DNA of 64,000 nucleotides from Candidatus Omnitrophota bacterium (GTDB lineage: Bacteria > Omnitrophota > Gorgyraeia > Aquiviventales > Aquiviventaceae), in NCBI GenBank assembly GCA_016193175.1, contig JACPSR010000142.1:54332-118331 (forward strand), read 5' to 3'. Below are positions 13,838 to 52,529 of this stretch, piece after piece. The position numbers and the translations under genes are program-made. The stretch's first letter is position 1. Each line of letters starts with the position of its first letter. The notes under the pieces are model-generated. The model saw only the letters and a list, made by a program, of their open reading frames with translations, was not told the origin of the DNA and made no database searches.

Positions 13838-13843
13838 CCACGC

Positions 13844-21234: not shown

Positions 21235-22231
21235 GTCGGACAACGCTCGGGTGCTGATCGTCGGGTGCGGCGAGCTTGGCAGTCGTCATCTGCAGGCCGT
21301 CGCGACGCTCCCAGACGTGGCGGAGATTGACGTCGTGGACTCACGCACCGAGGCGTTGAGGCAGGGACAGGAACGCCTCGTTGAGGTCACGGAGCGCAAC
21401 CCCCAAACGCGGTATCGTTGGCTATCCTCGTTGGAGGAGGCTGCTGGTGGGGGTCAACTGTGCATTGTGGCTACCCAGGCGGAAGGGCGCTGTCAGCTCG
21501 TGCGGGATGTGGTTGAGCGGCTAGGGTACGGAGGGTTTCTTTTGGAGAAGATCGTCGGCCAGTCCATCGAGGAAATTGAAGGTCTCGAAACGTTCTTGGG
21601 GGTGCGGGGGTGTACCGCCTGGGTCAACCTGAAAACACGGACGTACCCCATCTATCAGCACATCAAGCAGCGGCTGGAGCCTGGCGAGCCCATCCAATTG
21701 ACGTCGCTCGGCGGTAATCACGGTCTGGCCACGAACGGCGTGCATACGGCGGATTTGTTTGCGTTCTTCGATGGAACCGAGGAGATCGAGTTGGTTGGCT
21801 GCCGCGTTGATCCGATCCTGCATCCGTCAAAGCGGGGCGAGCGTCTCTTTGACCTCAGCGGAACCCTCCAAGGGGCCACGAAGAACGGGAGCCATTTTAT
21901 GCTGTCGTATGCGAAGGACCACAAGCAGTCGGAGCAGATCACGATTGCGGGTCGGCGCTATCGGTGCATCGTCGATCAGAGCGAGAGGAAGCGGTGGGTG
22001 GTCGAAAGCCACGTGGACACGGGTTGGGTGTGGCAGCCGGTCCCATCGACAGAGAACCTTCGGGTCAGCCTGATGAGCCGGCAATTTGTCCGGGAGATCC
22101 TCCATACCGGAACCTGCAGCCTGCCGACGCTCAAGGAGTCCTTGGTGGCGCACCGGTTCATCTTCGGGGCCATTCAGCCGGTGTTCAGTCAGCTGATGGG
22201 ACATGAGGTTGAGTTATGTCCGGTGACGTGA
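21227..22231 (+). CDS. Rossmann-fold oxidoreductase, Gfo/Idh/MocA-like
   Basis: RVLIVGCGELGSRHLQA N-terminal dinucleotide fold and FLLEKIVG (a variant of the EKP motif). Confidence 0.55.
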   Translation: MAESDNARVLIVGCGELGSRHLQAVATLPDVAEIDVVDSRTEALRQGQERLVEVTERNPQTRYRWLSSLEEAAGGGQLCIVATQAEGRCQLVRDVVERLGYGGFLLEKIVGQSIEEIEGLETFLGVRGCTAWVNLKTRTYPIYQHIKQRLEPGEPIQLTSLGGNHGLATNGVHTADLFAFFDGTEEIELVGCRVDPILHPSKRGERLFDLSGTLQGATKNGSHFMLSYAKDHKQSEQITIAGRRYRCIVDQSERKRWVVESHVDTGWVWQPVPSTENLRVSLMSRQFVREILHTGTCSLPTLKESLVAHRFIFGAIQPVFSQLMGHEVELCPVT

Positions 22232-23280
22232 CGGGGTCGGCGCTTGAGGCGCGCGCGCCGTGCTCTGCGTCGGAGCTTGCAGCCGCCATCGCCCGGGCGG
22301 ATGTGGCGGGTGCCGTTGCGACCGTGGTCGGAATCGGCACGATGGGCAAACACTTCGTGAGCGCGCTCCGGGCGCTCGGGGTGAAGCGTGTGCGCCTCTG
22401 CGCTCGTTCGCCAGGACCCTTGGAGTCGTTCCGAGCGTTCGAGGGGTTCGAAACGTTCGCCGGCGGCATTGAGCGGTTCGTCGGCCGACCGGCTCCTGGC
22501 GAGCTGGCGATTATCGCGACCCCGACGGCCTTGCTCATCCCGGCCGCCCGGCGGCTGGCGTCGCTGGGCTTCCGTCGGCTGCTGATTGAGAAACCTGTCT
22601 CGCTCTGGCCGGCGGAGATTGAGCGGCTGGCCGAGGAGCTTGAGGGCGAGGGGGTCGAGGCGTCCTGCGCCTACAACCGCGTCGCGTATCCCTCGTGTCA
22701 AGAAGTGCGGGCTCGTGTCGCCCGCGAGGGCGGGGCCACCTCGTGTACCTATACGTTCACCGAGCGGATCAAGCCGGATTGGCCGCAGACGTTTTCCGCG
22801 GAAGAGCTGGCGCGGTGGGGCATCGCCAACAGCTTGCATGTGATGAGCATGGCGCATGGGGTGATCGGCTGGCCCGCGTCCTGGTCGGCCCATCGTTCCG
22901 GCAGCCTGCCGTGGCACCCGACCGGAGCCGTCTTTATGGGGTCCGGCGTCTCGGATCGTGGGATCCCCTTTGGGTATCATGCGGATTGGGGTTCCACTGG
23001 CCGCTGGTCCGTCGAGGTCCATACCGCGGCCGCGTCGTATCGGTTGTGTCCCCTCGAACAAGTGTTTCGCCGGACATCGACGACGAGCGGCTGGACAGAC
23101 ATTCCGGTCGCGGCCTTCGCGCCGCAGGTGAAGGCGGGAATCACGGAGCAGGTGGCGGCGATGTTGTGTGAGGAGATCGGGGAGCGGGTGCCGCTGGTGT
23201 CGCTGCGCGCGGCCGCCTCGCTGTCGAGATACGCTGAAGCGGTCTTCGGCTATGACTCGGCGGAGACAGAGGCGCCATGA
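22216..23280 (+). CDS. Rossmann-fold oxidoreductase, Gfo/Idh/MocA-like
   Basis: VVGIGTMGKHFVSAL, IATPTALLIPAARRL and LLIEKPVS (EKP motif). Confidence 0.55.
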   Translation: MSGDVTGSALEARAPCSASELAAAIARADVAGAVATVVGIGTMGKHFVSALRALGVKRVRLCARSPGPLESFRAFEGFETFAGGIERFVGRPAPGELAIIATPTALLIPAARRLASLGFRRLLIEKPVSLWPAEIERLAEELEGEGVEASCAYNRVAYPSCQEVRARVAREGGATSCTYTFTERIKPDWPQTFSAEELARWGIANSLHVMSMAHGVIGWPASWSAHRSGSLPWHPTGAVFMGSGVSDRGIPFGYHADWGSTGRWSVEVHTAAASYRLCPLEQVFRRTSTTSGWTDIPVAAFAPQVKAGITEQVAAMLCEEIGERVPLVSLRAAASLSRYAEAVFGYDSAETEAP

Positions 23281-23325
23281 TCGTCGCAGTCGATCGCGCG
23301 GATCGATGAGGATGGAGACGCCAGT

Positions 23326-23413
23326 GCCAACCGTGTCATCCTTCGTTGAGACAGCGAGGCGGCTGTGCGCAGCCTATGAGGCGATGTACCTCGACGGTGG
23401 CGTGGCATGGTGA
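23326..23413 (+). pseudogene. C-terminal remnant of a paralog of CDS 18982-20076
   Basis: ARRLCAAYEAMYLDGGVAW* versus LDRLCADYEATYLDGGVRW*. DNA similarity runs from 23363, matching 20026 onward. It lies in otherwise non-coding 23281-23406. Confidence 0.55.
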
Positions 23414-24423
23414 TGGGCAGAGTGGCGACGCGGGTCGGGGTGCGGCGGGTGGCCGTCGTCGGAACGGGAAGCGCTGGCATGAGGCATCTGGATGTCCTAC
23501 GTCAACTCGACGGCGTTGAGTCGATCGCCGTGCCCAAGCGTCCCGAGCGTGCCGCAGAACTGGCCGGAGCTGGCCAGGCGGCGTTGCGCGATTTGCGCGA
23601 GGTGGTGGCGTCCGGTGCCACGCGCGCGATCATCGCGACGGATACCGGCTGTCACCTTGAAGATGGGCTTGCAGCGCTGGGGCAGGGGTTGGACCTGCTC
23701 ATCGAAAAGCCGCTGGCGACCAACGCCACCGACGCGGCACGGCTTCGCGCGGCGGCTGTCCACGCCGGGCGAAGACTATTCGTTGGTTGCGTCTTACGGT
23801 TTTCGGAATCCCTCAACGCCTTCCACTCGTTGCTGAAGCAGATCGGCCGGGTGCACTCGGTGCGCATCGAATGCCAGTCATATCTGCCGGACTGGCGGCC
23901 CGCCCGCCCCTATCAGGAGTCCTATGTGGCGCGTCGCGTAGAAGGCGGGGTCTTGTTAGATCTCATTCATGAGATCGACTACGCGGGGTGGATCTTCGGG
24001 TGGCCCAAGGCGGTTCAGGCGAGGCTACGCAACGTGGGGCGCTTGAGCATCGCGGAAGAGGAAACCGTTGATCTGCTGTGGGAAACGCCCATGGCCGGCT
24101 GCGTCTCGATGAGCTTGGATTATCTGACCCGCCCCCCACGCCGCGTGACGCGGGCCTGCGGGGAACGGGGGACCGTGGAGTGGGATGGCATCGCGGGGAC
24201 GGCGAGCTTGGCCCTTGCGGGACAAGCGCCGATGGTCGTCCGCTCTTCACAGACACGCGAGGAGATGTTCCTCGCCCAGGTGCGCGCGTTCCTCGAAGCG
24301 TGTGGTGACGGGCGCGATCCGCGACTGGCCACAGCTGAGGATGGCGTGAGGGCTCTGGCGGTCTGTGACGCAGCACGCCGGTCCTCTCAGAGCCGGCAGG
24401 AGGAGCCGGTGGTGATCCTATGA
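23407..24423 (+). CDS. Gfo/Idh/MocA family oxidoreductase (PtmF-like position in a nonulosonic acid cluster)
   Basis: RVAVVGTGSAGMRHL, LLIEKPLA (EKP motif) and a C-terminal alpha/beta domain. Directly upstream of neuA. Confidence 0.75.
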   Translation: MVMGRVATRVGVRRVAVVGTGSAGMRHLDVLRQLDGVESIAVPKRPERAAELAGAGQAALRDLREVVASGATRAIIATDTGCHLEDGLAALGQGLDLLIEKPLATNATDAARLRAAAVHAGRRLFVGCVLRFSESLNAFHSLLKQIGRVHSVRIECQSYLPDWRPARPYQESYVARRVEGGVLLDLIHEIDYAGWIFGWPKAVQARLRNVGRLSIAEEETVDLLWETPMAGCVSMSLDYLTRPPRRVTRACGERGTVEWDGIAGTASLALAGQAPMVVRSSQTREEMFLAQVRAFLEACGDGRDPRLATAEDGVRALAVCDAARRSSQSRQEEPVVIL

Positions 24424-25172
24424 GCGTCGGCAGGCGGTTGCTGGCGGTGATTCCCGCGAGGGGAGGATCGCGCGGGCTGCCGGGCAAGAACATCCGACTG
24501 TTTGCGGGGCTGCCCTTGATCGGCCATGCGGTTCGCTTTGCGCAAATGTGTCTTGAGATCACGCGAAGCGTCGTCTCCACGGATGACGAGGAGATTGCCC
24601 GAGTGGCGCGGAACTGTGGCGCGGAGGTCCCGTTCATCCGACCATCAGCGCTCTCGCAGGATGACACACCGCTGTGGCCGGTGGTTCGCCATGCGCTGGC
24701 ATGGGTCGAGGAGCACGAGGGAGAGGCCTACGACCTCGTGTTGCTCTTGGATCCCACCTCACCAGCGAGGGAGCCCTTGGATGTGAGCCAGGCGATGGAG
24801 CGGCTGCGGCACGCCCCAGAAGCCGACGGCATCATCGGGGTATCGCAGCCGGACTTCAACCCCATCTGGCACTGCGTGGTCGAACGTGACGGATGGATGG
24901 CCCATCTGATTGATAGCGGCAGGCAATTTCATCGTCGGCAGGACGTTCCCACGGTGTACCGCATCAACGGCTCGCTCTACCTGTGGCGGGCCGCTTTCGT
25001 CCGGGACCAAGCCGCTGCGTGGGAAGCGGGAAGGCACCTGATGTACGAGATTCCGGAGTCTCGGGCGATGTCGATCGACACGATCGAGGAGTTTGAACAG
25101 GCGGAGTTGTTGGTCACAGGGGGCCTCATCCATCTGCCGTGGGTGCAGGAGGACGAAAGCAGAGCAAGATGA
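24420..25172 (+). CDS. neuA: N-acylneuraminate (nonulosonate) cytidylyltransferase
   Basis: LAVIPARGGSRGLPGKNIRLFAGLPLIGHAV is the CMP-NeuAc synthetase family signature. Confidence 0.85.
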   Translation: MSVGRRLLAVIPARGGSRGLPGKNIRLFAGLPLIGHAVRFAQMCLEITRSVVSTDDEEIARVARNCGAEVPFIRPSALSQDDTPLWPVVRHALAWVEEHEGEAYDLVLLLDPTSPAREPLDVSQAMERLRHAPEADGIIGVSQPDFNPIWHCVVERDGWMAHLIDSGRQFHRRQDVPTVYRINGSLYLWRAAFVRDQAAAWEAGRHLMYEIPESRAMSIDTIEEFEQAELLVTGGLIHLPWVQEDESRAR

Positions 25173-26002
25173 CCAAGGGTCAGGTGACGGCAACGGCGAC
25201 GCGAACCCTCGCGGATCTCATGCGACTGTCAGGACGCAAGGCGCTGATTACTGGAGGGACCGGGCATGTGGGGGTGGCGGTCGGCGAGGCGCTGGTTGAG
25301 TTGGGCGCGACCGTGGCGGTGCTCGATGTCGATGCCGCGAGATGCCAGGAGCGCGCGGACGCCTTGGGCCGGATGCGAGCGCGCAGCGCGGTGGCGATTC
25401 CTTGCGACCTTCGTGACGAGCAAGCGACCCGGGGCGCCATCCACCGGTCGATTGAATGGCTGGGGGGTTTGGACATCCTCGTCCATTGCGCGGCCTATGT
25501 GGGGACGGACCAGCTCCCCGGCTGGGTGGTACCGTTTGAGCAGCAGACGGTGGACGCGTGGGATGCGGCCATGCGGGTCAATCTGACCTCCGCCTTCATT
25601 ATGGTGCAGGAAGCCCGCACGATGCTGGACGCCTCCGGTACCGGCTCGGTGATCCTCATTGGCTCGACGTACGGACTGGTCGGCCCTGATCCGCGCCTCT
25701 ACGAGGGTACGACGATGGGGACTCCCGCAGGTTACGCGGCTTCCAAGGGCGGCGTGCTGCAACTCACGCGGTATCTCTCGACCGTCCTGGCGCCACGCGT
25801 GCGCGTGAATGCCATCACCCCGGGAGGGATCTGGCGCAATCAGCCGGAGGCGTTCCACCAGCGCTATGTCAGCCGCACGCCGCTGGGCCGCATGGCTTCC
25901 GAGGAAGATCTGAAAGGGGCGGTCGCGTATCTGGCCAGCGACCTCTCGGCCTACGTGACAGGGCAGAATCTCGTCGTCGATGGAGGATGGACGGCATGGT
26001 GA
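25169..26002 (+). CDS. Short-chain dehydrogenase/reductase (PtmA-like)
   Basis: ALITGGTGHVGVAVG, YAASKGG catalytic Y-x3-K, and C-terminal VTGQNLVVDGGWTAW. Confidence 0.8.
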   Translation: MTKGQVTATATRTLADLMRLSGRKALITGGTGHVGVAVGEALVELGATVAVLDVDAARCQERADALGRMRARSAVAIPCDLRDEQATRGAIHRSIEWLGGLDILVHCAAYVGTDQLPGWVVPFEQQTVDAWDAAMRVNLTSAFIMVQEARTMLDASGTGSVILIGSTYGLVGPDPRLYEGTTMGTPAGYAASKGGVLQLTRYLSTVLAPRVRVNAITPGGIWRNQPEAFHQRYVSRTPLGRMASEEDLKGAVAYLASDLSAYVTGQNLVVDGGWTAW

Positions 26003-27039
26003 TCGCCGAGCGATCCGTCGGTCCGGGGCAGCCGTGCCTCATTATCGCGGAGGCCGGGGTCAATCATAACGGCGACATGGCGCTCGCGCGGCGCTTGATC
26101 GACGCCGCCGCCGAGGCCGGGGCTGACGCGGTCAAGTTCCAGACCTTCAAGGCCGAACGGTTAGCGAGCGCATCGGCTCCCAAGGCCGCTTATCAATGGC
26201 AGGCCACCGATCGCTGGGAATCGCAGCGCGAGATGCTGCGTCGATTGGAGCTGTCGGAATCGGCTCATCGAGGCCTCATGGTCTCTTGCCAGCAGCGCGG
26301 CATCCTGTTTCTCTCATCTGCTTTTGAGGAGGAAAGCGCCGATCTGTTGGAGCGGTTGGGCGTGTGCGCCTTCAAGATTCCATCAGGAGAACTGACGAAT
26401 CTGCGGTTCTTGGAGCATGTCGCTCAGAAGGGCAAGCCGATGATTGTGTCGACCGGGATGTCCACCCTCTCGGAGGTTGAGCAGGCGGTGCAGATCATTC
26501 GACGAGCCAGGAACGATCAACTCATCCTGCTCCATTGTGTCAGCGACTACCCGGCCAATCCATCGGATGCAAATCTGCGCGCCATGCATACGATGGCTGA
26601 GGCGTTCAACGTGCCAGTGGGGTATTCCGATCACACCCCGGGTGTCGATGTCGCCTTAGCCGCCGTGGCCTTAGGGGCGTGTGTCATCGAAAAGCATTTC
26701 ACGTTGGATCGGGCGCTTCCGGGACCGGATCATCGCGCTTCACTCGAGCCCAATGAGTTGCGTCAACTGGTTGAAGGTATTCGGAGGGTCGAAGCTGCGC
26801 TGGGACATGGGCGCAAGGAACCGGCTCAGCGCGAAGCCCCGACCGCCGCGGTGGCGCGCAAAAGTCTCGTGGCCGCCAGGGATATTCCGGCTGGGAGTCT
26901 CCTGACCGAAACACTCATTGTGGCCAAGCGTCCCGGGACCGGTTTACCGCCAGCCCTCTTGCCTCAACTGGTTGGACGAAAGACCGTCCACGATATTCCT
27001 GCCGGCGCGCTCTTGACCCTCGACATGGTGGCTTCATGA
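25987..27039 (+). CDS. neuB: N-acetylneuraminate/legionaminate synthase family (NeuB) with C-terminal SAF domain
   Basis: PCLIIAEAGVNHNGDMALARRLIDAAAEAGADAVKFQTF and GYSDHTPG. An alternative start at 25996 gives an ATGGTGA overlap. Confidence 0.9.
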   Translation: MDGMVIAERSVGPGQPCLIIAEAGVNHNGDMALARRLIDAAAEAGADAVKFQTFKAERLASASAPKAAYQWQATDRWESQREMLRRLELSESAHRGLMVSCQQRGILFLSSAFEEESADLLERLGVCAFKIPSGELTNLRFLEHVAQKGKPMIVSTGMSTLSEVEQAVQIIRRARNDQLILLHCVSDYPANPSDANLRAMHTMAEAFNVPVGYSDHTPGVDVALAAVALGACVIEKHFTLDRALPGPDHRASLEPNELRQLVEGIRRVEAALGHGRKEPAQREAPTAAVARKSLVAARDIPAGSLLTETLIVAKRPGTGLPPALLPQLVGRKTVHDIPAGALLTLDMVAS

Positions 27040-28961
27040 GAACGATTGGGGTGGTGACGGTTGGTCGCTCAGATTACGGCATCTACGTGCCCATCCTGCG
27101 CGCCATTCAGCACGAGCCGGCTCTGCAGTTGCATCTCATCGTTAGCGGGATGCATCTGTTGGAGGAGTTCGGGTTGACGGTGCGCGAGATTGAAGCCGAC
27201 AGATTTCCGATCGGCGCGCGCGTGTTCCTCCCGTTGCCTGAGGACAGCCCCGAGGCGATCGCGGCGGCGATCGGTGCGGCGGTGACGGGGTTTGCTCGCG
27301 CGTATGCCTCGCAGCGGCCGGATCTGTTGATCGTGCTGGGGGACCGGTTCGAGATGTACGCCGCGGCGGTGGCGGCTTTGCCCTTGAAGATTCCGGTGGC
27401 GCATATCCATGGTGGGGAACTGACGCAAGGTGCGATGGATGACGCGCTGCGTCATTCACTGACGAAACTCAGCCATCTTCACTTCGTCGCGACGGAGGAG
27501 TATGCCCACCGCGTCATCCAACTCGGGGAAGAGCCCTGGCGCGTGACGGTGTCGGGTGCGCCGAGCTTGGATCACGTCGGGATGGTGCCGTTGCTGACGG
27601 CTGAAGCCCTGTGTAACCGGTTTGGATGGCATTGGGAGGCGGCGCCGCTACTGGTGACCTACCATCCGGTGACACTGGAGTACGAGCAGACCGAGTGGCA
27701 GATGACTGAACTCCTCGACGCCCTGGAGGAATGCAAGCGGCCCATGATCTTCACGATGCCCAATGCCGACATGCATGGCCGTGTGATTCGACGACTCCTC
27801 ACAGCGTTCATCGCCTCCCACCCCAATGCGCACGCGGTGGAGAATCTTGGAACCCAAGGCTATTTCAGCTTGATGGCCGCTGCCGCGGCGATGATCGGAA
27901 ACTCCTCCAGCGGTCTGATTGAAGCGCCGTCGTTCGGTCTGCCGGTCGTGAACATCGGGACGAGGCAACAGGGGCGGGTACGGGCCTCGAACGTCATTGA
28001 TGTGGGCTATAGTCGAACGGAGATCATCCGCGGCATTCGCCAGGCGCTGACGGCCGAGTTCCGAGCCGCCATCCGCCATGGCACCAACCCCTATGGCGAT
28101 GGGCACGCCGCCACGGTGATCGTGAACACCCTCAAGGCGATGCCGTTGGATGATCGGTTGATCAAAAAGCGATTCGTCGATCTGCCGGTGGAGAGGCCGG
28201 ACCGTGCTGACTCGCCGGCCCTCGTGCCAACTCGGGGTGAACCGATGGAACGGTGTGTGATCCTTGGGGGCGGAGGGCACGCCCGTGTGGTCATCGACAG
28301 CCTCCTCGCCAGCAAGCTGGCGGTGCCGTATGCCGTCGTTGACGCTGATCGGTCGCTGTGGGGCAAGGAGCTGTTGGGCGTGCCGGTCGTCGGGGACGAT
28401 GAGCGGCTGCGAGAACTGCGCTGTGAGGGGGTGACGCGATTCATCGTGGGGCTTGGCGGGGTCGGGGATAACGGCCCGCGACAGCAGCTCTTTTGTCTGG
28501 GAATGACCAGTGGTCTTGCCCCGCTGACGGTATGCCACCCGTCTGCGATTTGTTCACCCTCAGCGGTGATCGGTGAGGGATCCTTTCTCGCGCCGGCAAC
28601 CGTGGTGAACTCAGGGGCCGGACTGGGGGTGAATGTGATTGTGAATACGGGGGCGATCGTGGAACATGACTGCGCCATCGGTGACCACGTCCACCTCGCG
28701 ACCGGGGCAAGACTCTCAGGGCACGTCCTCGTCGGCGCGGGCGCCCATATTGGCGCCGGGGCCACCATTCGGCAGCGTGTGACGATCGGCGAGGGGGCGA
28801 TTGTTGGCGCGGGCGCGGTCGTCGTGAAATCGGTTGAGCCCTGGACGGTTGTGGTGGGCGTGCCCGCCCGAGTCCTGGAGCAAGAGCCGGCTGACGCTCA
28901 CGACAAAACGCATGACCGCCAACACGTCTCAGGGCGACAACAGAAGGAAGGGGCCCTATGA
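27036..28961 (+). CDS. neuC: Fusion protein: hydrolysing UDP/GDP-N-acetylhexosamine 2-epimerase (NeuC/LegG-like) with a NeuD/PglD-family hexapeptide acetyltransferase
   Basis: The N-terminal ~385 aa start IGVVTVGRSDYGIYVPILRAI. The C-terminal ~220 aa contain VILGGGGHARVVIDSL plus left-handed beta-helix repeats (GAHIGAGATIRQRVTIGEGAIVGAGAVV). Confidence 0.85.
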   Translation: MRTIGVVTVGRSDYGIYVPILRAIQHEPALQLHLIVSGMHLLEEFGLTVREIEADRFPIGARVFLPLPEDSPEAIAAAIGAAVTGFARAYASQRPDLLIVLGDRFEMYAAAVAALPLKIPVAHIHGGELTQGAMDDALRHSLTKLSHLHFVATEEYAHRVIQLGEEPWRVTVSGAPSLDHVGMVPLLTAEALCNRFGWHWEAAPLLVTYHPVTLEYEQTEWQMTELLDALEECKRPMIFTMPNADMHGRVIRRLLTAFIASHPNAHAVENLGTQGYFSLMAAAAAMIGNSSSGLIEAPSFGLPVVNIGTRQQGRVRASNVIDVGYSRTEIIRGIRQALTAEFRAAIRHGTNPYGDGHAATVIVNTLKAMPLDDRLIKKRFVDLPVERPDRADSPALVPTRGEPMERCVILGGGGHARVVIDSLLASKLAVPYAVVDADRSLWGKELLGVPVVGDDERLRELRCEGVTRFIVGLGGVGDNGPRQQLFCLGMTSGLAPLTVCHPSAICSPSAVIGEGSFLAPATVVNSGAGLGVNVIVNTGAIVEHDCAIGDHVHLATGARLSGHVLVGAGAHIGAGATIRQRVTIGEGAIVGAGAVVVKSVEPWTVVVGVPARVLEQEPADAHDKTHDRQHVSGRQQKEGAL

Positions 28962-30505
28962 TTCTGGTAACGATTGTCAGACCGCCCGTGGTGTTCTCCC
29001 GGCGGTCCTATAGCGTCGCCATCGTGCCCCCGCTTGGGCCCGCCTATTTAGCGGCGGCGCTGCGAACAGCAGGGCATCAGGTGAGGATCGTTGATGCCGT
29101 GGGGGGACGGATTTCGCACATCGGGGCCACCGCACGGCCGAACCTCCTCTATCAGGGGCTCTCGATCGACGAGATGATCGCCGGCATGGACCCCGAGACG
29201 CAGCTCATGGCCGTGTCGGCCATGTTCTCACAGGATTGGCCGCATGTCGAAGTCTTGATCGCGAAGATTGCGCAGCGGTTTCCAGAGGTCCCGATCGTGG
29301 TCGGAGGAGAACATGCCACCGCCGCGTGGGACTACATCTTGGACACCTCGCCAGCGATCACCTGTGTCGGTCTGGGCGAGGGGGAAGAGACCATTTGTGA
29401 TCTGGCCAGGTGGGTCGAACACGGAGGCGACCTGAGCGCCATCCCGGGCATCGCCTACCGGCAAGCCGGGCGTCCCGTCATGACGTCGCCGCGCAAACGG
29501 ATCATGGCCGTCGATGACATTCCCCCTCCGGCCTGGAATTTGGTTCCGCTCGAGGCCTATCTGGACGGCGGCTACGGCCACGGGGTCGATTTGGGACGGA
29601 GCATGCCGATCTTGGCCACACGCGGATGCCCATTCCAGTGCACGTTCTGCTCAAACCCGGCGATGTGGACGACCCGCTATGTGATGCGGGATGTCGGCAA
29701 AGTCGTCGATGAAATTGCGCGCTATCTGCGCGAGTATCGCGCGACGAACGTCGATTTTTACGACCTCACCGCCATCATCAGGAAAGATTGGATCATGAAG
29801 TTCTGCGACGAAATTCTGCACAGGCGGCTGACACTCACCTGGCAGCTTCCGAGCGGAACGCGCAGCGAAGCCCTTGACGCCGAAGCGCTGCGCAAAATGT
29901 TTGAGGCTGGATGCCGCAACCTGACCTATGCCCCTGAGAGCGGGTCCGAGCGGACATTGAAGGCGATCAAGAAAGAAGTGCGCTTGCCAAAGATGGTCAG
30001 ATCGATCAAAGCGGCGAAGCGCGCGGGCATTCATCTCAAGTGTAACCTGATCATCGGCTTTCCGAAGGAACGGCGCCGTGACCTCTTTCGCACGATCTGG
30101 TTTGCCTTGAAGATGGCCTGGATGGGCGTCGATGACGCCCCGCTCTTTCTGTTTTCGCCCTACCCCGGAAGCGAGTTGTATCACTATCTGCGCTCAACCG
30201 GAGCGATCCAGAAGATGGACAACGACTATTTTGAGTCGCTGCTCTGCTTTATGGATCTGTCCAAGTCGAGCCGCTATTGTGAGCGCATCGGGCCTCTGGA
30301 GCTCAACATCTACCGATGTGTCGGGATGTCCCTCTTCTATGTGCTGAGCTACCTGCGGCACCCCGCACGAATCGTGCGGACGATCCGGAACCTCTGGCAC
30401 AGCGAGTCAGCCACCGTGTTTGAGCAACGGCTCATTGAGATGAAGCGACGAGTGTCCATGGCGATGGCAGGCCGGTCGGTCGAATCGGCGGTGAATTCTC
30501 GATGA
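28958..30505 (+). CDS. B12-binding domain radical SAM enzyme (class B)
   Basis: N-terminal cobalamin-binding-like Rossmann region and radical SAM cluster motif RGCPFQCTFCSNP. Confidence 0.8.
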   Translation: MILVTIVRPPVVFSRRSYSVAIVPPLGPAYLAAALRTAGHQVRIVDAVGGRISHIGATARPNLLYQGLSIDEMIAGMDPETQLMAVSAMFSQDWPHVEVLIAKIAQRFPEVPIVVGGEHATAAWDYILDTSPAITCVGLGEGEETICDLARWVEHGGDLSAIPGIAYRQAGRPVMTSPRKRIMAVDDIPPPAWNLVPLEAYLDGGYGHGVDLGRSMPILATRGCPFQCTFCSNPAMWTTRYVMRDVGKVVDEIARYLREYRATNVDFYDLTAIIRKDWIMKFCDEILHRRLTLTWQLPSGTRSEALDAEALRKMFEAGCRNLTYAPESGSERTLKAIKKEVRLPKMVRSIKAAKRAGIHLKCNLIIGFPKERRRDLFRTIWFALKMAWMGVDDAPLFLFSPYPGSELYHYLRSTGAIQKMDNDYFESLLCFMDLSKSSRYCERIGPLELNIYRCVGMSLFYVLSYLRHPARIVRTIRNLWHSESATVFEQRLIEMKRRVSMAMAGRSVESAVNSR

Positions 30506-32025
30506 CGCGAGGAGGAGGTTGGCGGCTCCCGCTGCTGCTCTATCTGGCGGGCCTGCTCCATTGGATCGGCTTCCTGTATCTCGATGTCACGCCCTCCGGC
30601 CAGGAGCGGGAACTGGTGTCCATAGCGCTCCGGAGTCCTGAGACGCTCTTGAAGCGTCCGAACTTCGGGATGGAAGACGGCGTCTACATCGGCGACGTCT
30701 GGTTCGTCTATGAGCGCATGCTCACGGCGCTCCAGCAGGCGGTTCGCAGCCGCCAGATCCCCTACCATCTGCCTGGCCTGAGCGGCTATGAGATGATGCC
30801 AACCACCGCCTCGCCGGTCGGCGATCGGCTCTTCGGTTTTCCCAATGGCTGGCCCTGGTCGCCGGAGGCGCTCCTCTTGGCCGTCCTGGATCTTCCAACC
30901 TTCGTCATCGTGACGTGGCTCATCATGTACTCGGTGGGATTTGCGGGGTGCCTCTTGATCCGGCGCCAGTACAGTCTGGGGCCGATGGCCTTCACGTTCC
31001 TGGCGGTGCTGTTCCATCTGAACGGTTGGATCACCACCCACATGACGACCAAGATGCCCGATAACACCGGCTACTATCTGAGCCCGTATCTCGTGCTGCT
31101 CCTGCTGAGGGCCGGGGAAGTGGCCCCCACGGATCGCTACGCGCAGCGGCGTCTCGGGTTATGGATCGGGTTGGTGATGGCGCTGATGTGGTGGCAGGGG
31201 TCGTGCCATCCCTTCATCCACTGGCTCACCATGCTGGGCTTCTGGGGCATTGTGAATTGGAGGAAATGGCGGGTCACGGTGGTGAGTGTGGTGAGCGCGT
31301 TTGCCCTGGCGGCGTTTCGCGTGATTCCGCCTGCGCTCAGTTGGGGCATGAAGCACCGCTATCATGTGGACAATCCCGCGATCATGGGGTTCTGGTCATT
31401 CGATCAATACATCGACGCGCTCGCGGTGTGCCACCCGTTCATCCCCGACGGGGGGTGGGAGCAATTCAATTGCTACGTCAGCGTGTTTGGCTTATGGGCG
31501 ATTCTCTATCTCGCGTTCTGGGCACCATGGAACGGCTCGAGGTGGGTGCGCCTGCGTCCCTGGCAGTCCTTGCTCATTCCCTCCGTGATCTTGGCGGTGA
31601 TGTCGTTCCGTCACATGAAGAGCGTGCTCATTCCGAATTGGATCCCCCTCTTTAACGCCGAGGCCTACACAGGACGATACATGATGATCCCCCTGGTCGT
31701 GTGGATCATTGTCGCGAGTATCAACCTCCAGGGCGCGGTCGAGGCGTTCTGGTCGCAGCGGCGGCTGCGATGGCTCATGGTCAGCGGGCTTGGCGTGATC
31801 GCGGCGTCCTTGCTGAACCATTCGCGCTTGTGGCGCATCTGGATGGCGACAAAGTTTGCGCACTGGGGTGGCTATGGGCCCACGCTGCCTGCGCGGTTGG
31901 CGAACGACATGACCGACCGCCTGTACATCAACGCGGTCGACCTGAGTCTGGGCATCAGCCTGGTCGCCTTGGTCGTGGTGATCGCCTTGTTGGTCGTGCC
32001 GCGCAAGCGACAGGGCGTGGGATGA
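30502..32025 (+). CDS. Polytopic membrane protein of unknown function (polymerase, ligase or GT-C candidate)
   Basis: 507 aa with many hydrophobic helices. ATGA junctions on both sides. The last codons QGVG* coincide with a solo junction-element arm. Confidence 0.55.
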   Translation: MTRGGGWRLPLLLYLAGLLHWIGFLYLDVTPSGQERELVSIALRSPETLLKRPNFGMEDGVYIGDVWFVYERMLTALQQAVRSRQIPYHLPGLSGYEMMPTTASPVGDRLFGFPNGWPWSPEALLLAVLDLPTFVIVTWLIMYSVGFAGCLLIRRQYSLGPMAFTFLAVLFHLNGWITTHMTTKMPDNTGYYLSPYLVLLLLRAGEVAPTDRYAQRRLGLWIGLVMALMWWQGSCHPFIHWLTMLGFWGIVNWRKWRVTVVSVVSAFALAAFRVIPPALSWGMKHRYHVDNPAIMGFWSFDQYIDALAVCHPFIPDGGWEQFNCYVSVFGLWAILYLAFWAPWNGSRWVRLRPWQSLLIPSVILAVMSFRHMKSVLIPNWIPLFNAEAYTGRYMMIPLVVWIIVASINLQGAVEAFWSQRRLRWLMVSGLGVIAASLLNHSRLWRIWMATKFAHWGGYGPTLPARLANDMTDRLYINAVDLSLGISLVALVVVIALLVVPRKRQGVG

Positions 32026-32027
32026 TC
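32011..32027 (+). repeat. Solo right arm of the junction element
   Basis: CAGGGCGTGGGATGATC is identical to the right arms of copies 1, 3 and 4. It carries the stop of 30502-32025 and the ATG (32022) of the hisF paralog. No convincing left arm is present. Confidence 0.7.
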
Positions 32028-32900
32028 GTGCGGCTGATTCCGCGGCTGGACATCAAGGGACCGAATTTGGTGAAGGGGATCCATCTCGAGGGTCTGCGCG
32101 TGCTCGGGAAACCCGAACGATTTGCGCGGATCTACTACGAGCAGGGGGCCGATGAGCTGTTGTACATGGATGTGGTGGCCAGTCTCTATGGCCGTAAGAG
32201 CCTTTTAGACATCGTGACGAGAACCGCCAAGGAGCTCTTTATCCCCCTGACAGTTGGCGGGGGGTTGCGGACGTTAGAGGATATCACACAGGCGTTATGG
32301 GCTGGAGCGGACAAAGTCGCCATCAACACCGCGGCCATCCAGCAGCCCCAACTGATTCATGACGCCGCGCGGAAGTTCGGCTCTTCCACGATCGTCGTCT
32401 CCATTGAGGCGATGCACAAGCCTGATGGACGATACGAGGCCTATACCGATAACGGGCGCCAACGCACAGGCGTCGATGCCGTGGAGTGGGCCCAGCGGGC
32501 AGCGGAGCTGGGTGCCGGCGAGCTGTTGGTGACATCGATCAACCGTGAGGGAACCGGCACCGGGTTTGATGTCGAGCTGACCAGACAGATTGCTGAACGC
32601 GTTCCGATTCCTGTGATCGCATGCGGAGGGGCTGGGATGGTCAGGCACGTCTACGAGGTGATCACGCAGGGCAAGGCCGATGCCGTCTGTCTGGCGTCGA
32701 TCCTGCACTACGGTGTCGTTCGGAACCTCCCACCCAGTGAACGCGACGTTGCTGAAGAAGGCAATACCGCGTATCTCAGAAGCGGCAAGGGCTTTTCGCG
32801 AGTCGAGGAGGCGACCTTGCCGGACATCAAGGCCTACCTCCTCGAGCGAAGGATCTTCTGCCGCGGGGCTCTGCGGGAGTCCGCCAATGCGATCGTGTAA
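32022..32900 (+). CDS. hisF: Imidazole glycerol phosphate synthase cyclase subunit paralog (HisF/WbuZ-like)
   Basis: RLIPRLDIKGPNLVKGIHLEGLRVLGKP and GADELLYMDV. Located in a glycan cluster next to hisH- and wbuX-like genes. Confidence 0.85.
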   Translation: MIVRLIPRLDIKGPNLVKGIHLEGLRVLGKPERFARIYYEQGADELLYMDVVASLYGRKSLLDIVTRTAKELFIPLTVGGGLRTLEDITQALWAGADKVAINTAAIQQPQLIHDAARKFGSSTIVVSIEAMHKPDGRYEAYTDNGRQRTGVDAVEWAQRAAELGAGELLVTSINREGTGTGFDVELTRQIAERVPIPVIACGGAGMVRHVYEVITQGKADAVCLASILHYGVVRNLPPSERDVAEEGNTAYLRSGKGFSRVEEATLPDIKAYLLERRIFCRGALRESANAIV

Positions 32901-33579
32901 GAAGCGGGTGGCGATTGTCGATTACGGGATGGGCAATCTGTTCAGCGTCCAGCAGGCCTGCGAGCACGTGGGGCTGGAGGCGGCGATCACCTCATCCGCA
33001 CAGGCCATCCTGTCGGCGGACGGGGTGATTCTCCCCGGCGTCGGGGCCTTCGGGGACGCCATGGCGACGCTCGCGCAGCGAGATCTGATCGGCGTCCTGA
33101 GGGACGTGGCCGACTCGGACAAACCGTTCCTCGGGATCTGTTTAGGCATGCAGTTGCTCATGACGGAAAGCCATGAGTTTGGGCGGCACGAGGGGTTGAA
33201 GATCTTGGAGGGTGACGTCGTGCGCTTGGCCGAGACGCGTCCCGAAGATGGTCGGATCGTGAAGGTCCCTCAAGTCGGGTGGAATCGAATCCGGCAGATC
33301 AACGGGCGACCGTGGGACGATTCCTGGTTGGCAGGGCTGGCGGATGGCACGTTTATGTACTTCGTCCACTCCTTCTATGTCCAACCGGCCGATCCGAGCC
33401 TGATCTGCGCCACGACCCGGTATGGGCAGACGACGTTTTGCTCAAGCCTTCGGCGTGGGAACGTGTTAGCCTGTCAGTTTCACCCGGAGCGCAGCGGCCC
33501 TCAGGGGCTGCAGGTGTATGCGAATTTCGGCGCGGCGCTGCAGCGGCCGGTTGCGGAATCGAGGGTCTCGACTCGATGA
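32887..33579 (+). CDS. hisH: Glutamine amidotransferase subunit paralog (HisH/WbuY-like)
   Basis: VAIVDYGMGNLFSVQQA, catalytic GICLGMQLL and FHPERS. Confidence 0.85.
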   Translation: MRSCKKRVAIVDYGMGNLFSVQQACEHVGLEAAITSSAQAILSADGVILPGVGAFGDAMATLAQRDLIGVLRDVADSDKPFLGICLGMQLLMTESHEFGRHEGLKILEGDVVRLAETRPEDGRIVKVPQVGWNRIRQINGRPWDDSWLAGLADGTFMYFVHSFYVQPADPSLICATTRYGQTTFCSSLRRGNVLACQFHPERSGPQGLQVYANFGAALQRPVAESRVSTR

Positions 33580-34799
33580 GTCTGGCCGTCCCCACACAAC
33601 GCTCCGAAGCCAAATATGGGTTGCCCGAGGCGGTGGTCTTCTGTCAGCGCTGCGTCATGTCGAACCAGCGTCCCTGCTCCTCGGTTGAATTCCGGCACAC
33701 GAAGGACCGGAGACATCGAACCCTCCGGTTTGACGATGAAGGGGTCTGCGATGCCTGCCGGGTCGCCGAACAGAAGGAGCAGATTGACTGGGCCAAGCGG
33801 GAAGAGGAACTGCTCCGGTTGCTTGACCGGCATCGCCGACGCGACGGCGGGTATGACTGCATCGTGCCGGGCAGCGGCGGCAAGGACAGCGCCTACGCCG
33901 CGCATGTGCTGAAGTACAAGTACGGGATGCACCCCTTGACGGTCACCTGGCCTCCGATCCTCTATACCGAGATCGGATGGAAGAACTTCAGGAGCTGGCT
34001 CGAGGTGGGCGGCTTTGACAACATCACGTTCAAGCCAAACGGCCGGGTGCATCGATTGTTGACACGGCTGGCCATTGAACACCTCCTGCATCCCTTTCAG
34101 ACCTTCATTCTTGGACAGAAGAATCTCGCTCCAAAGATCGCGTTACAAACGCGGGTGCCGCTGATTTTCTATGGCGAAAACGAAGCCGAGTACGGCAACC
34201 CTATTGCCGATACGAGCTCGTCGCTGCGCGATCGATCGTACTACACGATGCGCAACCTCTCGGAAGTGTACCTCGCGGGACTGTCCATCCCCGAGCTGCA
34301 GGAGCGGTATCGCCTGTCCTTGAATGATCTCAGCGCCTACCTGCCGGCCGACGGCCACGCCCTGGAAGAGTCGCAGATCGAAGTCCACTACCTTGGCTAC
34401 TACCTCAAGTGGACACCGCAGGAGAGCTACTACTACGCCGTAGAGCATACGGGCTTTGAGGCCAACCCGTTTCGAACCGAAGGGACGTACAGCAAGTACA
34501 ACAGCTTGGATGACAAGATCGACGGCCTGCACTACTACACGACGTACATCAAATTTGGCATCGGACGCGCCACGTATGATGCCTCGCAGGAAATCCGCAA
34601 CAAGCACCTCACGCGAGAGGAGGGGGTGGCACTCGTGCGGCGCTTTGACGGGGAGTTTCCGGAGCGGTACCTCCGTGAGGTGATGGACTTCATCGAATGC
34701 TCGCCAGAGCGGTTCCTGGAGTTGTGCGATACGTTCCGCTCCCCCCATCTCTGGAAGAAGGTCGAGGGTCGCTGGATGCTCCGTTGCCAGGTGGCATGA
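33576..34799 (+). CDS. N-acetyl sugar amidotransferase (WbuX/PseA/PtmG family, PP-loop ATPase)
   Basis: CQRCVMSN ... CDAC zinc-ribbon-like N-terminus and PP-loop CIVPGSGGKDSAY. Confidence 0.85.
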   Translation: MSLAVPTQRSEAKYGLPEAVVFCQRCVMSNQRPCSSVEFRHTKDRRHRTLRFDDEGVCDACRVAEQKEQIDWAKREEELLRLLDRHRRRDGGYDCIVPGSGGKDSAYAAHVLKYKYGMHPLTVTWPPILYTEIGWKNFRSWLEVGGFDNITFKPNGRVHRLLTRLAIEHLLHPFQTFILGQKNLAPKIALQTRVPLIFYGENEAEYGNPIADTSSSLRDRSYYTMRNLSEVYLAGLSIPELQERYRLSLNDLSAYLPADGHALEESQIEVHYLGYYLKWTPQESYYYAVEHTGFEANPFRTEGTYSKYNSLDDKIDGLHYYTTYIKFGIGRATYDASQEIRNKHLTREEGVALVRRFDGEFPERYLREVMDFIECSPERFLELCDTFRSPHLWKKVEGRWMLRCQVA

Positions 34800-34812
34800 A
34801 CGAGGACGCTCA

Positions 34813-35889
34813 ATGTACACGGACCTGACCACGTTGTGCATCGGACGAGCGAGTTCGTTACGAGCCGCCATAGCCCAGATGGACCGCAGCCGATTTGGCA
34901 TCGTGCTGGTGACCGACGACCAGCGACGCCTGGTGGGCACGATCACCGATGGGGATATCCGCCGCGCCATTTTGGCGAACGTGGATCTTGAGCAATCGGT
35001 GAACGTGCTCCTGGCGCGAAAGGCAACAACTCGCTTTGCGAAGCCCATCACGGCCGCGGCGGGCTCCGATCCCAATCTCTACCTGGCACTCCTGAAACAG
35101 CACAACATCCTTCACCTTCCGCTGATCGACGATGAGCAGCACGTCGTGGGGATGGTGACGAGGGATGAATTTCTGCCCAACGAGGTGCTGCCGCTCCACG
35201 CAGTGGTCATGGCGGGAGGGCTCGGTAGTCGTCTGCACCCCCTCACCGAAGAGCTCCCGAAACCGATGCTGCCGATCGGCAATCGTCCATTGCTCGAGAT
35301 CATCATCGCGCAGCTACGAGAGGCCGGCATTCGTCGCGTCCAGGTCACGACGCACCACAAGCCGGAGAAGATTGAGGAGCATTTTGGCGATGGGAAGGAC
35401 TTCGGGATCAACCTCTCCTATGTCGCAGAAGACCGACCGTTAGGAACAGCGGGGGCCCTGGGATTGCTCGGCGTTCCCAAGGAGACGACGTTGGTCATGA
35501 ACGGCGATATCCTGACGCAGGTGGATTTCCGGGCGATGCTGGTCTACCACCGGGAGTACGGGGCGGACCTCACGATGGCAGTGCGCCAGTACGACCTCAA
35601 GGTGCCCTACGGCGTGGTCGAGTGCGAGGATTCGGTGGTCCGTTCCCTCAGCGAAAAACCCACGGTGGGATTTTTTGTCAACGCGGGCATTTATCTGCTG
35701 GAGCCTCCCGTCTACCAATTCATCCCGAACGGCCAACCGTTCGACATGACGGAGTTGATCCAGTGCCTGCTCAAGGCGGGGAGGATGGTCGTCAGCTTCC
35801 CGGTCCGGGAATACTGGCTTGATATCGGAGAGCACGCGGGGTATGAGCGGGCAGAGCAAGACGTTCGCAACGAGAAGGTGCGGGTATGA
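34813..35889 (+). CDS. CBS-domain sugar-phosphate nucleotidyltransferase (PtmE/HddC-like)
   Basis: Tandem CBS region (LVGTITDGDIRR, VVGMVTRDEF), then NTP-transferase motif AVVMAGGLGSRLHPLTEELPKPMLPI. Confidence 0.8.
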   Translation: MYTDLTTLCIGRASSLRAAIAQMDRSRFGIVLVTDDQRRLVGTITDGDIRRAILANVDLEQSVNVLLARKATTRFAKPITAAAGSDPNLYLALLKQHNILHLPLIDDEQHVVGMVTRDEFLPNEVLPLHAVVMAGGLGSRLHPLTEELPKPMLPIGNRPLLEIIIAQLREAGIRRVQVTTHHKPEKIEEHFGDGKDFGINLSYVAEDRPLGTAGALGLLGVPKETTLVMNGDILTQVDFRAMLVYHREYGADLTMAVRQYDLKVPYGVVECEDSVVRSLSEKPTVGFFVNAGIYLLEPPVYQFIPNGQPFDMTELIQCLLKAGRMVVSFPVREYWLDIGEHAGYERAEQDVRNEKVRV

Positions 35890-36002
35890 TCCCACGCCCT
35901 AGCTGGGCTCCGCCTAAAGGCGGAGCCGCGAAACGGTGCCCCGTGTTTCTGTCATTGATGTTTCGCCCCACCAATAGGCGGGGCAGCCAGGGCGTGGGAT
36001 GA
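35886..36002 (+). repeat. Palindromic junction element, copy 5 (117 bp)
   Basis: Left arm ATGATCCCACGCCCT 35886-35900 and right arm CAGGGCGTGGGATGA 35988-36002. Hairpins GGCTCCGCC-TAAA-GGCGGAGCC 35906-35927 and CCCCACC-AATA-GGCGGGG 35966-35983. Inner stem CGAAAC/GTTTCG 35929-35934/35960-35965. Upstream TGA 35887-35889 and downstream ATG 35999 lie in the arms. Confidence 0.9.
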
Positions 36003-46284: not shown

Positions 46285-46903
46285 AGGGCAGTCGTTCCTC
46301 CAGCAATATCGCGACGAGGCCGCCCAGATTGCCCAGGCGCTGGACGTCGAGACGATGGATCACATGGTGGGGCGGCTTGTCCGGTTGCGCGATGAAGGCG
46401 GTCGTCTCTTCCTCTGCGGCGTGGGCGGGAGTGCCGGAAACTGCAGCCATGCGGTGAACGATTTTCGCAAGCTCGCCGGGATCGAAGCGTACAGTCCGGT
46501 GGATAATGTCTCAGAGCTGACAGCGCGAACCAACGACGAGGGCTGGGAGACGGTGTTTGCGGCATGGCTGAAGGTGAGCCGGGCCAGTTCGCGTGACGTG
46601 CTGTTCATCCTGTCAGTCGGTGGGGGCAGCCGAGAGCGCAACATCAGCGCCAACCTGGTGGCCGCTATTGATGAGGCCAAGGCCCGGGGCATGGATGTGT
46701 TGGGGGTCGTGGGACGGGACGGCGGGTACACGAAGCGACGAGGCGATCTGGTGCTGGTCATTCCGACGGTCAACGAGCAATCGGTCACGCCGCACACCGA
46801 GGCGTTCCAGGCCGTCGTGTGGCATGCCCTCGTGTCCGATCCACGCCTGATGGTGTGTGGCAACAAGTGGGAGACGCAGACCCTCCATGAGTCGAAGGTG
46901 TAA
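46274..46903 (+). CDS. gmhA: SIS-domain sedoheptulose 7-phosphate isomerase
   Basis: RLFLCGVGGSAGNCSHAVNDFRK and VLFILSVGGGS are typical of phosphoheptose isomerase. Start chosen inside the longer ORF at 46094. Confidence 0.8.
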   Translation: MLARGQSFLQQYRDEAAQIAQALDVETMDHMVGRLVRLRDEGGRLFLCGVGGSAGNCSHAVNDFRKLAGIEAYSPVDNVSELTARTNDEGWETVFAAWLKVSRASSRDVLFILSVGGGSRERNISANLVAAIDEAKARGMDVLGVVGRDGGYTKRRGDLVLVIPTVNEQSVTPHTEAFQAVVWHALVSDPRLMVCGNKWETQTLHESKV

Positions 46904-48550: not shown

Positions 48551-48586
48551 ACCTCTTCATGAGAAGCGAACCATGAGGTGCGAGCG

Positions 48587-49591: not shown

Positions 49592-49601
49592 TGTCTCGCC
49601 G

Positions 49602-52480: not shown

Positions 52481-52529
52481 CGGCGAACACTATGGCACAG
52501 GGACAGTCCTGAAGAGAAAGGTGGAAGCC

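Follow-up and report, generated by a model that had tools for sequence, protein, structure and literature searches.

The window analysed here, a stretch of 64,000 nucleotides of contig JACPSR010000142.1 (positions 54,332 to 118,331; GenBank assembly GCA_016193175.1) from an uncultured Omnitrophota bacterium, contains two genes, designated rSAM1 and rSAM2, for radical S-adenosylmethionine (SAM) proteins with an N-terminal cobalamin (B12)-binding-like domain (class B). Both genes lie in one single-strand gene cluster for a cell-surface glycan that exceeds 64 kb.

28958..30505, + strand, rSAM1, 515 aa; B12-binding domain at residues 22-149, radical SAM domain at residues 220-379, cluster cysteines 224/228/231
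44725..46284, + strand, rSAM2, 519 aa; B12-binding domain at residues 48-163, radical SAM domain at residues 230-398, cluster cysteines 235/239/242

The coordinates of both open reading frames (ORFs) were exact in the original prediction, and both translate without interruption. The B12-binding domain (Pfam PF02310, cut-off 32.1 bits) was found with 56.9 bits in rSAM1 (E 2e-15) and 48.2 bits in rSAM2 (E 1e-12), and the Radical_SAM domain (PF04055, cut-off 29.5 bits) with 67 bits (E 3e-18) and 55 bits (E 1e-14), respectively. The CxxxCxxC [4Fe-4S] motif reads RGCPFQCTFC in rSAM1 and RGCPYTCTFC in rSAM2; in alignments with 13 homologs for each family its cysteines (C224/C228/C231 and C235/C239/C242) are invariant, as is the GG motif of the B12 domain (G116/G117 in rSAM1, G133/G134 in rSAM2), and just one or two further invariant cysteines per family were seen in these alignments, hence no sign of an auxiliary Fe-S cluster. 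The two proteins share 24% identity across 436 residues. They are intact, mutually unrelated and class B-type in architecture, as had been predicted from the N-terminal domain, the cluster motif and the clear difference between the two. Both genes are translationally coupled with their neighbours, as indicated by 4-nt ATGA overlaps at 28958, 30502 and 44725; the start of the gene downstream of rSAM2 is most likely the ATG at 46274, 11 nt ahead of the rSAM2 stop.

All credible genes of the window are encoded on the + strand, at about 62% GC content and with frequent 4-nt start/stop overlaps, and no tRNA genes were found in its 64 kb; positions 1-64000 thus form an unusually long co-directional glycan supercluster. 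ORF starts were assigned mechanically, and the true start of the HisF gene listed below is probably near 32030.

Family relationships and predicted folds

Neither protein reached the cut-off of any NCBIfam equivalog model; the matches (33 for rSAM1 and 18 for rSAM2) were all below threshold, and an assignment to a named family was rejected for both. The best match of both proteins was BchE (TIGR02026; 163 bits for rSAM1 and 75 bits for rSAM2, cut-off 481), and the other better matches, also far under threshold, comprised ApyD, a P-methyltransferase family, HpnJ (TIGR03471; 115 and 71 bits, cut-off 578) and the radical SAM diol-dehydratase AprD4 (NF033070; 70.2 and 57.8 bits, cut-off 500); the lipid-acting HpnR and ladderane-type radical SAM proteins were also among the matches. 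The chemistry of rSAM1 and rSAM2 was left without a family assignment because neither meets any named-family cut-off.

Among solved structures, the closest by sequence to both proteins is AprD4 (E 8e-16 for rSAM1, E 2e-15 for rSAM2), a 1,2-diol dehydratase that is not known to bind cobalamin; the class B fold by itself is thus no proof that cobalamin is used. Residues 97-265 (approximately) of rSAM1, the region of the B12 domain, also align by sequence with the cobalamin methylases TokK, CysS and TsrM; for rSAM2, MgmA is the sole cobalamin methylase detectable. AlphaFold2 models (pLDDT 88.5 for rSAM1 and 79 for rSAM2) were compared with the PDB by Foldseek, and the top matches of both were exclusively class B structures (E 1e-13 to 1e-21), in the order MgmA, AprD4, TsrM, CysS, OxsB and TokK for rSAM1, and OxsB, AprD4, MgmA, TsrM, CysS and TokK for rSAM2. 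By sequence and modelled fold, the class B architecture of both proteins is established. Methylases cannot be told from OxsB and AprD4 by the Foldseek ranking, all scores lying within a few orders of magnitude of each other, and the attempt to discriminate by fold was dropped; a sequence signature that would do so is not available either. The original prediction had noted that class B enzymes typically methylate; a step from class B membership to methylation does not follow, with AprD4 as the nearest structure, BchE, ApyD and HpnJ matched below cut-off, and both kinds of enzyme ranked alike by fold.

The sugar-acting AprD4 (apramycin biosynthesis; PDB 6fd2) is a top fold match of both proteins (TM-score about 0.63-0.74) and likewise joins an N-terminal B12-like Rossmann domain to a radical SAM barrel; it differs in that the structural alignments give 17-18% identity, the sequence match to rSAM1 is limited to the radical SAM half, and the substrate is an aminoglycoside and not a cell-surface glycan precursor. 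MgmA (9ccb), TsrM (6wte), TokK (7kdx) and CysS (9n1b) have the class B fold in common with rSAM1 and rSAM2, but at 13-18% identity, and their substrates are peptides, proteins, carbapenams and polyketide-type intermediates. Class B radical SAM enzymes are a huge and mostly unassigned group that has been characterised on sugars almost only in actinomycete antibiotic pathways. Here GenK, GenD1, MoeK5 and Fom3 C-methylate unactivated sugar carbons; in contrast to these pathways, no genes for a phosphoenolpyruvate (PEP) mutase or for aminoglycoside synthesis are present at the locus. Fom3 acts on a cytidylylated phosphonate, and this substrate parallels the tight linkage of rSAM2 to a cytidylyltransferase gene.

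The rSAM2 module and its distribution

The rSAM2 gene belongs to a module that is dispersed across 40.3-60.0 kb of the window. Its genes and those adjoining or lying between them are:

38145..40316, + strand, conserved protein, 723 aa; no Pfam or PDB match, orthologs in related loci
40317, + strand, GmhB-like HAD phosphatase; 170 bits (cut-off 178)
40850-42607, + strand, unannotated soluble protein, 585 aa; no Pfam or PDB match, module member
42552, + strand, GFO/IDH/MocA oxidoreductase; module member
43736-44728, + strand, MT23-like protein; degenerate SAM motif I
46274..46903, + strand, SIS_2 sugar-phosphate isomerase (earlier 'gmhA'); 60 bits with the GmhA model (cut-off 209)
48578, + strand, ArnC/PgfS-type polyprenyl-phosphate glycosyltransferase of family 2 (GT2); two C-terminal transmembrane helices
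49470, + strand, HpnK-like YdjC deacetylase; 199.6 bits (cut-off 232.6); with the GT2 it spans 48578..50480
50450, + strand, NodU-like carbamoyltransferase; in the row 48578-52480
52194..53288, + strand, TAL_FSA (fructose-6-phosphate aldolase/transaldolase-like); module member
55854, + strand, HpcH/HpaI class II pyruvate aldolase; full-length alignment with HpaI, GarL and YfaU
56767 and 57450, + strand, two KduD/FabG-like short-chain dehydrogenases/reductases (SDRs); the second resembles KduD and mannonate oxidoreductases
58117, + strand, KdsB-like cytidylyltransferase (CTP_transf_3); 193.3 bits (cut-off 193)
59073, + strand, D-2-hydroxyacid dehydrogenase; module member, module end at 60017

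The flanks of rSAM2 had been described as a methyltransferase-like ORF upstream and gmhA downstream. The former is found at 43736, but the latter is a SIS_2 gene with 60 bits against the GmhA model (TIGR00441), far below the cut-off of 209; this SIS gene is conserved beside rSAM2 in five other loci (L001, L011, L013, L016 and L020). The MT23-like protein at 43736 has ILEAATPPS in the place of a GxGxG SAM motif I, seen in three orthologs including those of L009 and L001; with so degenerate a motif, it is perhaps not a methyltransferase of the conventional kind. The 585-aa and 723-aa proteins, both large and soluble, gave no Pfam or PDB sequence match even at lenient thresholds, and have orthologs of 36-69% identity in related loci; they are candidates for novel glycosyltransferases. 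The HpcH protein aligns end to end with HpaI, with GarL and with YfaU, the last a 2-keto-3-deoxy-sugar aldolase. Within the module span, the ArnC/PgfS-type GT2, the HpnK-like YdjC protein and the NodU-like carbamoyltransferase follow each other in a row (48578-52480), suggesting a sugar decoration that is lipid-linked, deacetylated and carbamoylated.

The rSAM2 family is discrete, with 549 clusters at 50% identity (E at most 1e-30) out of 24,797 weaker relatives. In a scan of species-representative genomes, 44 rSAM2-family loci (35-84% identity) were found, in Omnitrophota, Planctomycetes, Dehalococcoidia, Terriglobia, Leptospiraceae, Woese- and Nanoarchaeota, Thalassospiraceae, Methylobacter, Pelagibacteraceae, Nitrospira and others. 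The locus L001, from a Nitrospirae metagenome-assembled genome, encodes a homolog of 62% identity in a compact operon of about ten genes (7215-17546) in the order 553-aa hypothetical protein, GFO, rSAM2, MT23, SIS_2, TAL_FSA, HpcH_HpaI, SDR, SDR, CTP_transf_3, i.e. the gene set that is dispersed in the window. When all window proteins were compared with the loci by tblastn, the full module was kept in L011, L012, L013, L016, L020 and L040, and BLAST between loci confirmed the orthology of the 585-aa, MT23-like and 723-aa proteins.

In the more distant loci, it is CTP_transf_3, HpcH and a 2-hydroxyacid dehydrogenase that recur in the neighbourhood. For loci flanked by 10 kb or more of sequence, and with rSAM1-family loci as the control, CTP_transf_3 was found in 18/30 rSAM2-family loci (within 3 kb in 10 of them) against 1/25 control loci (Fisher p 1e-5), and HpcH in 11/30 against 1/25 (Fisher p 4e-3); these counts are not phylogenetically independent, the p-values ignoring kinship between loci, and the ORF calls in the loci are mechanical. 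In the tier of 30-50% identity (SAR11, Methylobacter, Thalassospiraceae, Nitrospira and others), a cytidylyltransferase accompanies the gene in 15 of 19 loci. A SAR11 single-cell locus (L036) carries a polysialyltransferase-like gene, an epimerase, the rSAM2 homolog, HpcH, a KdsB-like gene and an ABC transporter.

Variants of the arrangement were also observed. The locus L009 has GFO, MT23, SIS and HpcH genes and no rSAM2 at the usual place, and ends shortly after. On a 302-kb metagenome contig (L139, about 10001-13723), an HpcH/KdsB-like/GFO/MT23-like module adjoins a gene of the rSAM1 family (46% identity), after which a DUF6044/YfhO-like membrane protein is encoded; because of this pairing, either radical SAM family can accompany the HpcH/KdsB-like module. 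Four loci (L030, L034, L040 and L051) show two tandem rSAM2-family matches each, as paralog pairs or split genes.

Gene neighbourhood of rSAM1

In the window, rSAM1 is flanked on both sides by genes of a legionaminic-type nonulosonate pathway; these and further genes of the window are:

3136-5520, + strand, YfhO-like membrane protein; upstream part of the window
7058-8122, + strand, GHMP kinase, possibly HddA-like; far upstream
10138-11394, + strand, TylC3-type nucleoside-diphosphate-hexose C-methyltransferase; Methyltransf_13, 23 and 14
22216..28961 and 31701..38181, + strand, the two halves of the legionaminic-type genes
within 22216..28961, + strand, two GFO/IDH/MocA proteins; first half
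24420, + strand, cytidine monophosphate (CMP)-sugar synthetase; below cut-off, PseF model 144 against 206 bits
25139, + strand, SDR; no named-family score
25987, + strand, NeuB/LegI-like synthase; NeuB 460 bits against a cut-off of 400
27036-28961, + strand, NeuC+NeuD fusion, 641 aa; NeuC 439 against 236, NeuD 209 against 161 bits
30502..32025, + strand, polytopic membrane protein, 507 aa; at least six transmembrane-like segments, no Pfam match, coupled to rSAM1
31701 / 32680 / 33279, + strand, HisF / HisH / WbuX amidotransferase set (acetamidino formation); WbuX 369 against 203 bits
34813, + strand, CBS-nucleotidyltransferase; below cut-off
35999, + strand, 4,6-dehydratase-like SDR; below cut-off
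36943, + strand, LegC-family aminotransferase; 443 bits (cut-off 420)

The LegC, NeuB, NeuC and NeuD genes score above cut-off, and the CMP synthetase is present yet below. The predicted setting of a glycan operon with nonulosonate genes is thus borne out, and these genes are of the legionaminic type (LegC, NeuB, NeuC and WbuX). The hydrolysing 2-epimerase NeuC and the acetyltransferase NeuD form one fused protein in the window and are encoded by separate genes in L010. Downstream of the gene at 10138 there are further methyltransferases, epimerases and GT2s; in total, five conventional methyltransferase-like genes (10138, 11419, 18268, 43736 and 53301) were counted besides the two radical SAM genes, which suggests a heavily methylated glycan.

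The immediate succession of rSAM1 to nonulosonate genes holds within the window, where the NeuC+NeuD fusion lies upstream with an ATGA overlap, but is kept only in the two closest relatives, with other genes between rSAM1 and NeuB/C/D. The rSAM1 family is large (>5,800 matches) and variable in context, and nonulosonate genes do not recur near rSAM1 homologs among 80 metagenome loci. The relatives of 74-76% identity (L009 and L010) lie in Omnitrophota loci of the same kind, with legionaminic-type genes; they carry a cassette of an ArnC-like GT2, an HpnJ-like 442-aa radical SAM protein, an epimerase, rSAM1 and a polytopic protein, inserted at differing points relative to the legionaminic-type genes. 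A fixed functional link of rSAM1 with NeuB/NeuC was rejected, since the association occurs only in these relatives and its position is shuffled there.

The association that recurs is that with membrane proteins, several of them of the GT-C type (PMT_2 or YfhO-like). Of the rSAM1-family loci, 27/32 encode a large polytopic protein within 5 kb to either side, compared with 8/28 of the rSAM2-family loci; the directly downstream ORF is polytopic in 9/38 against 0/27, and an ArnC-like GT2 lies within 5 kb in 8/32 against 0/28. A weak homolog of the 507-aa protein (28% identity, E 2e-10) stands right after the rSAM1 ortholog in L010, and in an Elusimicrobia locus (L008) an ArnC-like GT2, the rSAM1 homolog and a PMT_2 glycosyltransferase of the GT-C type follow each other. 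The 507-aa protein may transfer or polymerise glycans. That rSAM1 has one conserved GT-C partner was considered and is only partly true, the polytopic neighbours being heterogeneous.

Predicted pathway and chemistry of rSAM1 and rSAM2

We read both proteins, with middling confidence, as class B-type sugar-tailoring enzymes, rSAM2 acting on an ulosonic acid and rSAM1 on a sugar destined for lipid-linked transfer. For rSAM2, the substrate is likely a 3-deoxy-2-ulosonic acid and not a guanosine diphosphate (GDP)-heptose, because of its conserved partners CTP_transf_3 and HpcH and of the low GmhA score of the SIS protein. For rSAM1, the recurrence of polytopic proteins and ArnC-like GT2s hints weakly at a sugar that is handled by a lipid-linked, extracytoplasmic transfer machinery.

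In the window, the two genes expected of the proposed CMP-ulosonate-type module are co-located, HpcH at 55854 and the KdsB-like gene at 58117. In the route that the module may encode, a sugar phosphate would be made and isomerised by the TAL_FSA and SIS proteins and dephosphorylated by the HAD phosphatase; the HpcH aldolase would then join the sugar with pyruvate to a 3-deoxy-2-ulosonic acid, which would be redox-tailored and CMP-activated, and rSAM2 would modify the sugar acid in its free or, as with Fom3, its CMP-linked form. This logic resembles the pathways for 3-deoxy-D-manno-octulosonic acid (Kdo; KdsD-KdsA-KdsC-KdsB) and for nonulosonates (NeuB/LegI and NeuA/LegF) in its sugar-phosphate isomerase, C3 condensation, HAD phosphatase and CTP_transf_3, and differs in having an HpcH/HpaI pyruvate aldolase for the PEP-dependent KdsA/NeuB and, in addition, the oxidoreductases, the MT23-like protein and a class B radical SAM protein.

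C-methylation is a plausible but putative activity of both rSAM1 and rSAM2. Most characterised class B radical SAM enzymes are methylases, and C-methylation is favoured for this reason, as well as because the B12 domain scores above threshold with an invariant GG motif, and because an unactivated carbon is what the conventional TylC3-type C-methyltransferase of the locus cannot reach. In the most likely mechanism, a 5'-deoxyadenosyl radical would take a hydrogen atom off an unactivated sp3 carbon and methylcobalamin would give the methyl group, to yield a C-methyl branch.

Several observations weigh against the joint reading of the two proteins as sugar-tailoring enzymes with these substrates. 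In addition to the absence of any NCBIfam match above cut-off, the proximity to AprD4, which is not known to bind cobalamin, the indifferent fold ranking and the limits of the co-occurrence counts, five rSAM2-family loci of 59-69% identity (L014, L015, L017, L019 and L022) mostly do not have the cytidylyltransferase/aldolase context, and two of them lie amid unrelated genes. On the side of rSAM1, ten polytopic neighbours that were scanned proved heterogeneous (PMT_2, DUF6044/YfhO-like, Wzy_C, a fusion of transmembrane segments with GT2, and several with no family), and the YfhO-like protein directly after rSAM1 in L009 is the ortholog of that at 3136-5520 of the window, so that gene order is shuffled among close relatives.

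AprD4-like dehydration or deoxygenation, HpnJ- or OxsB-like ring contraction or rearrangement, and epimerisation are serious alternatives for the chemistry of one or both proteins, in which case the B12-like domain may be vestigial; we consider such non-methylating radical sugar chemistry possible but the less probable course. It is favoured by the rank of AprD4 as first PDB sequence match of both proteins and by the detection of no methylase but MgmA with rSAM2, by the top NCBIfam matches BchE and HpnJ, which are not methylases, and by OxsB and AprD4 leading the fold list of rSAM2. The five conventional methyltransferases already encoded at the locus, including the sugar C-methyltransferase of the TylC3 type, point the same way, as does the presence of the rSAM2 family in SAR11 single amplified genomes, a lineage not known to have B12-dependent metabolism. 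The matches to AprD4 (70 and 58 bits against 500) and HpnJ (115 and 71 bits against 578) are far below their cut-offs, however, and both proteins have a B12-binding domain that scores above the Pfam threshold, with its GG motif invariant; the prevalence of methylases among the characterised class B enzymes also argues for methylation.

The hopanoid head-group system HpnI/HpnK/HpnJ, a GT2, a YdjC deacetylase and a B12-type radical SAM protein for ring contraction, offers a comparison for this alternative: the operon holds an ArnC-type GT2 and an HpnK-like YdjC protein, and the radical SAM protein beside rSAM1 in L009 and L010 has HpnJ as its best match. It differs in the HpnJ scores (115, 71 and, for the protein of L009/L010, 151 bits against 578), in the GT2, which is of the polyprenyl-phosphate type and not HpnI, and in that no hopanoid genes are present; with all scores below cut-off, an HpnI/K/J-like ring-contraction system was retained as an analogy only.

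The original prediction had named CMP-nonulosonate or GDP-heptose intermediates as substrates to be tried. That rSAM1 C-methylates a legionaminic-type nonulosonate or its CMP ester, and rSAM2 a GDP-heptose intermediate from GmhA-type genes, is improbable in our estimate. In its favour, rSAM1 is coupled to the NeuC+NeuD gene between the two legionaminic-type pathway halves, its relatives of 74-76% identity likewise lie in legionaminic-type loci, and two single amplified genomes of marine Alphaproteobacteria (L035 and L047) hold rSAM2 homologs among NeuB/NeuC/LegC-like genes. The window also contains a SIS protein, a GmhB-like HAD phosphatase (170 against 178 bits), the GHMP kinase at 7058 and an HddC-like nucleotidyltransferase, the last three of which are scattered and count against an ulosonic acid as the substrate of rSAM2. 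On the other hand, NeuB stands beside rSAM2 homologs in only 3/30 loci (0/25 rSAM1-family control loci), the rSAM1 cassette occupies differing positions relative to the legionaminic-type genes in L009 and L010, and the compact module of L001 contains HpcH and CTP_transf_3 and neither a kinase nor a sugar-1-phosphate nucleotidyltransferase. For rSAM2, the GDP-heptose reading was rejected: at 60 bits, the SIS protein stays far below the GmhA cut-off of 209, and the neighbours that recur in the 30 family loci are CTP_transf_3, HpcH and a 2-hydroxyacid dehydrogenase; genes for a heptose kinase or transferase are not among the conserved partners, which include TAL_FSA. The GHMP kinase at 7058, the GmhB-like HAD at 40317 and the CBS-nucleotidyltransferase at 34813 could form a heptose branch of their own in the locus.

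Substrates other than sugars (a lipid, polyprenol or peptide), with the radical SAM genes merely co-located with glycan genes, are very improbable: there are rSAM1 homologs with UbiA, methyltransferases and further radical SAM genes as neighbours (L006) or amid unrelated genes (L007), and rSAM2 homologs that stand alone (L015, L017) or adjoin a cytidine diphosphate (CDP)-alcohol phosphatidyltransferase (L022), and lipid-acting HpnR and ladderane-type proteins are among the NCBIfam matches, but both genes are translationally coupled within a 64-kb run of sugar-pathway genes, and rSAM2 is in strong cross-phylum synteny with sugar-acid genes.

The enzymes are ordinary in architecture; it is their pathway context that is undescribed and widely conserved. 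In a full-text literature search of incomplete coverage, no paper was found that links radical SAM/cobalamin enzymes with ulosonic, nonulosonic, legionaminic or sialic acid or with O-antigen biosynthesis, or HpcH with cytidylyltransferases. We tentatively propose, as one possibility among several, that the rSAM2 module (40317-60017) represents an undescribed CMP-3-deoxy-2-ulosonic-acid route, in which an HpcH-type aldolase replaces the PEP-dependent synthase KdsA/NeuB and rSAM2 adds a C-methyl group or another radical modification, and that it makes new Kdo/sialic-acid-like surface sugars in uncultured bacteria, DPANN archaea, SAR11 and at least one phage-like marine contig. If true, radical and possibly cobalamin-dependent chemistry would extend to primary surface-glycan biosynthesis in Omnitrophota, Planctomycetes, Nitrospirae, SAR11 and DPANN archaea, and the route to such sugars would be non-canonical and aldolase-based. 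With about ten genes, the compact module of L001 is small enough for heterologous reconstitution, by which the proposal is directly testable. For annotation, a 'B12-binding radical SAM' gene in a glycan locus is not automatically a methylase, and a 'gmhA' adjoining it is not to be taken as heptose biosynthesis.

A tblastn search with rSAM2 against phage and plasmid collections gave no family member, only generic B12-radical SAM/BchE matches of 24-26% identity. On marine contigs of the TARA/JGI data (L003/L004; up to 284 kb), an rSAM2 homolog of 59% identity is encoded at 10001-11647, next to an HAD/PNKP phosphatase, a cupin mannose-6-phosphate-isomerase-like gene and PMM; many phage-like genes are found on the contig (PG_binding, Peptidase_M15, GH25 lysozyme, N6_N4 methylase), and this rSAM2 homolog may be virus-encoded.

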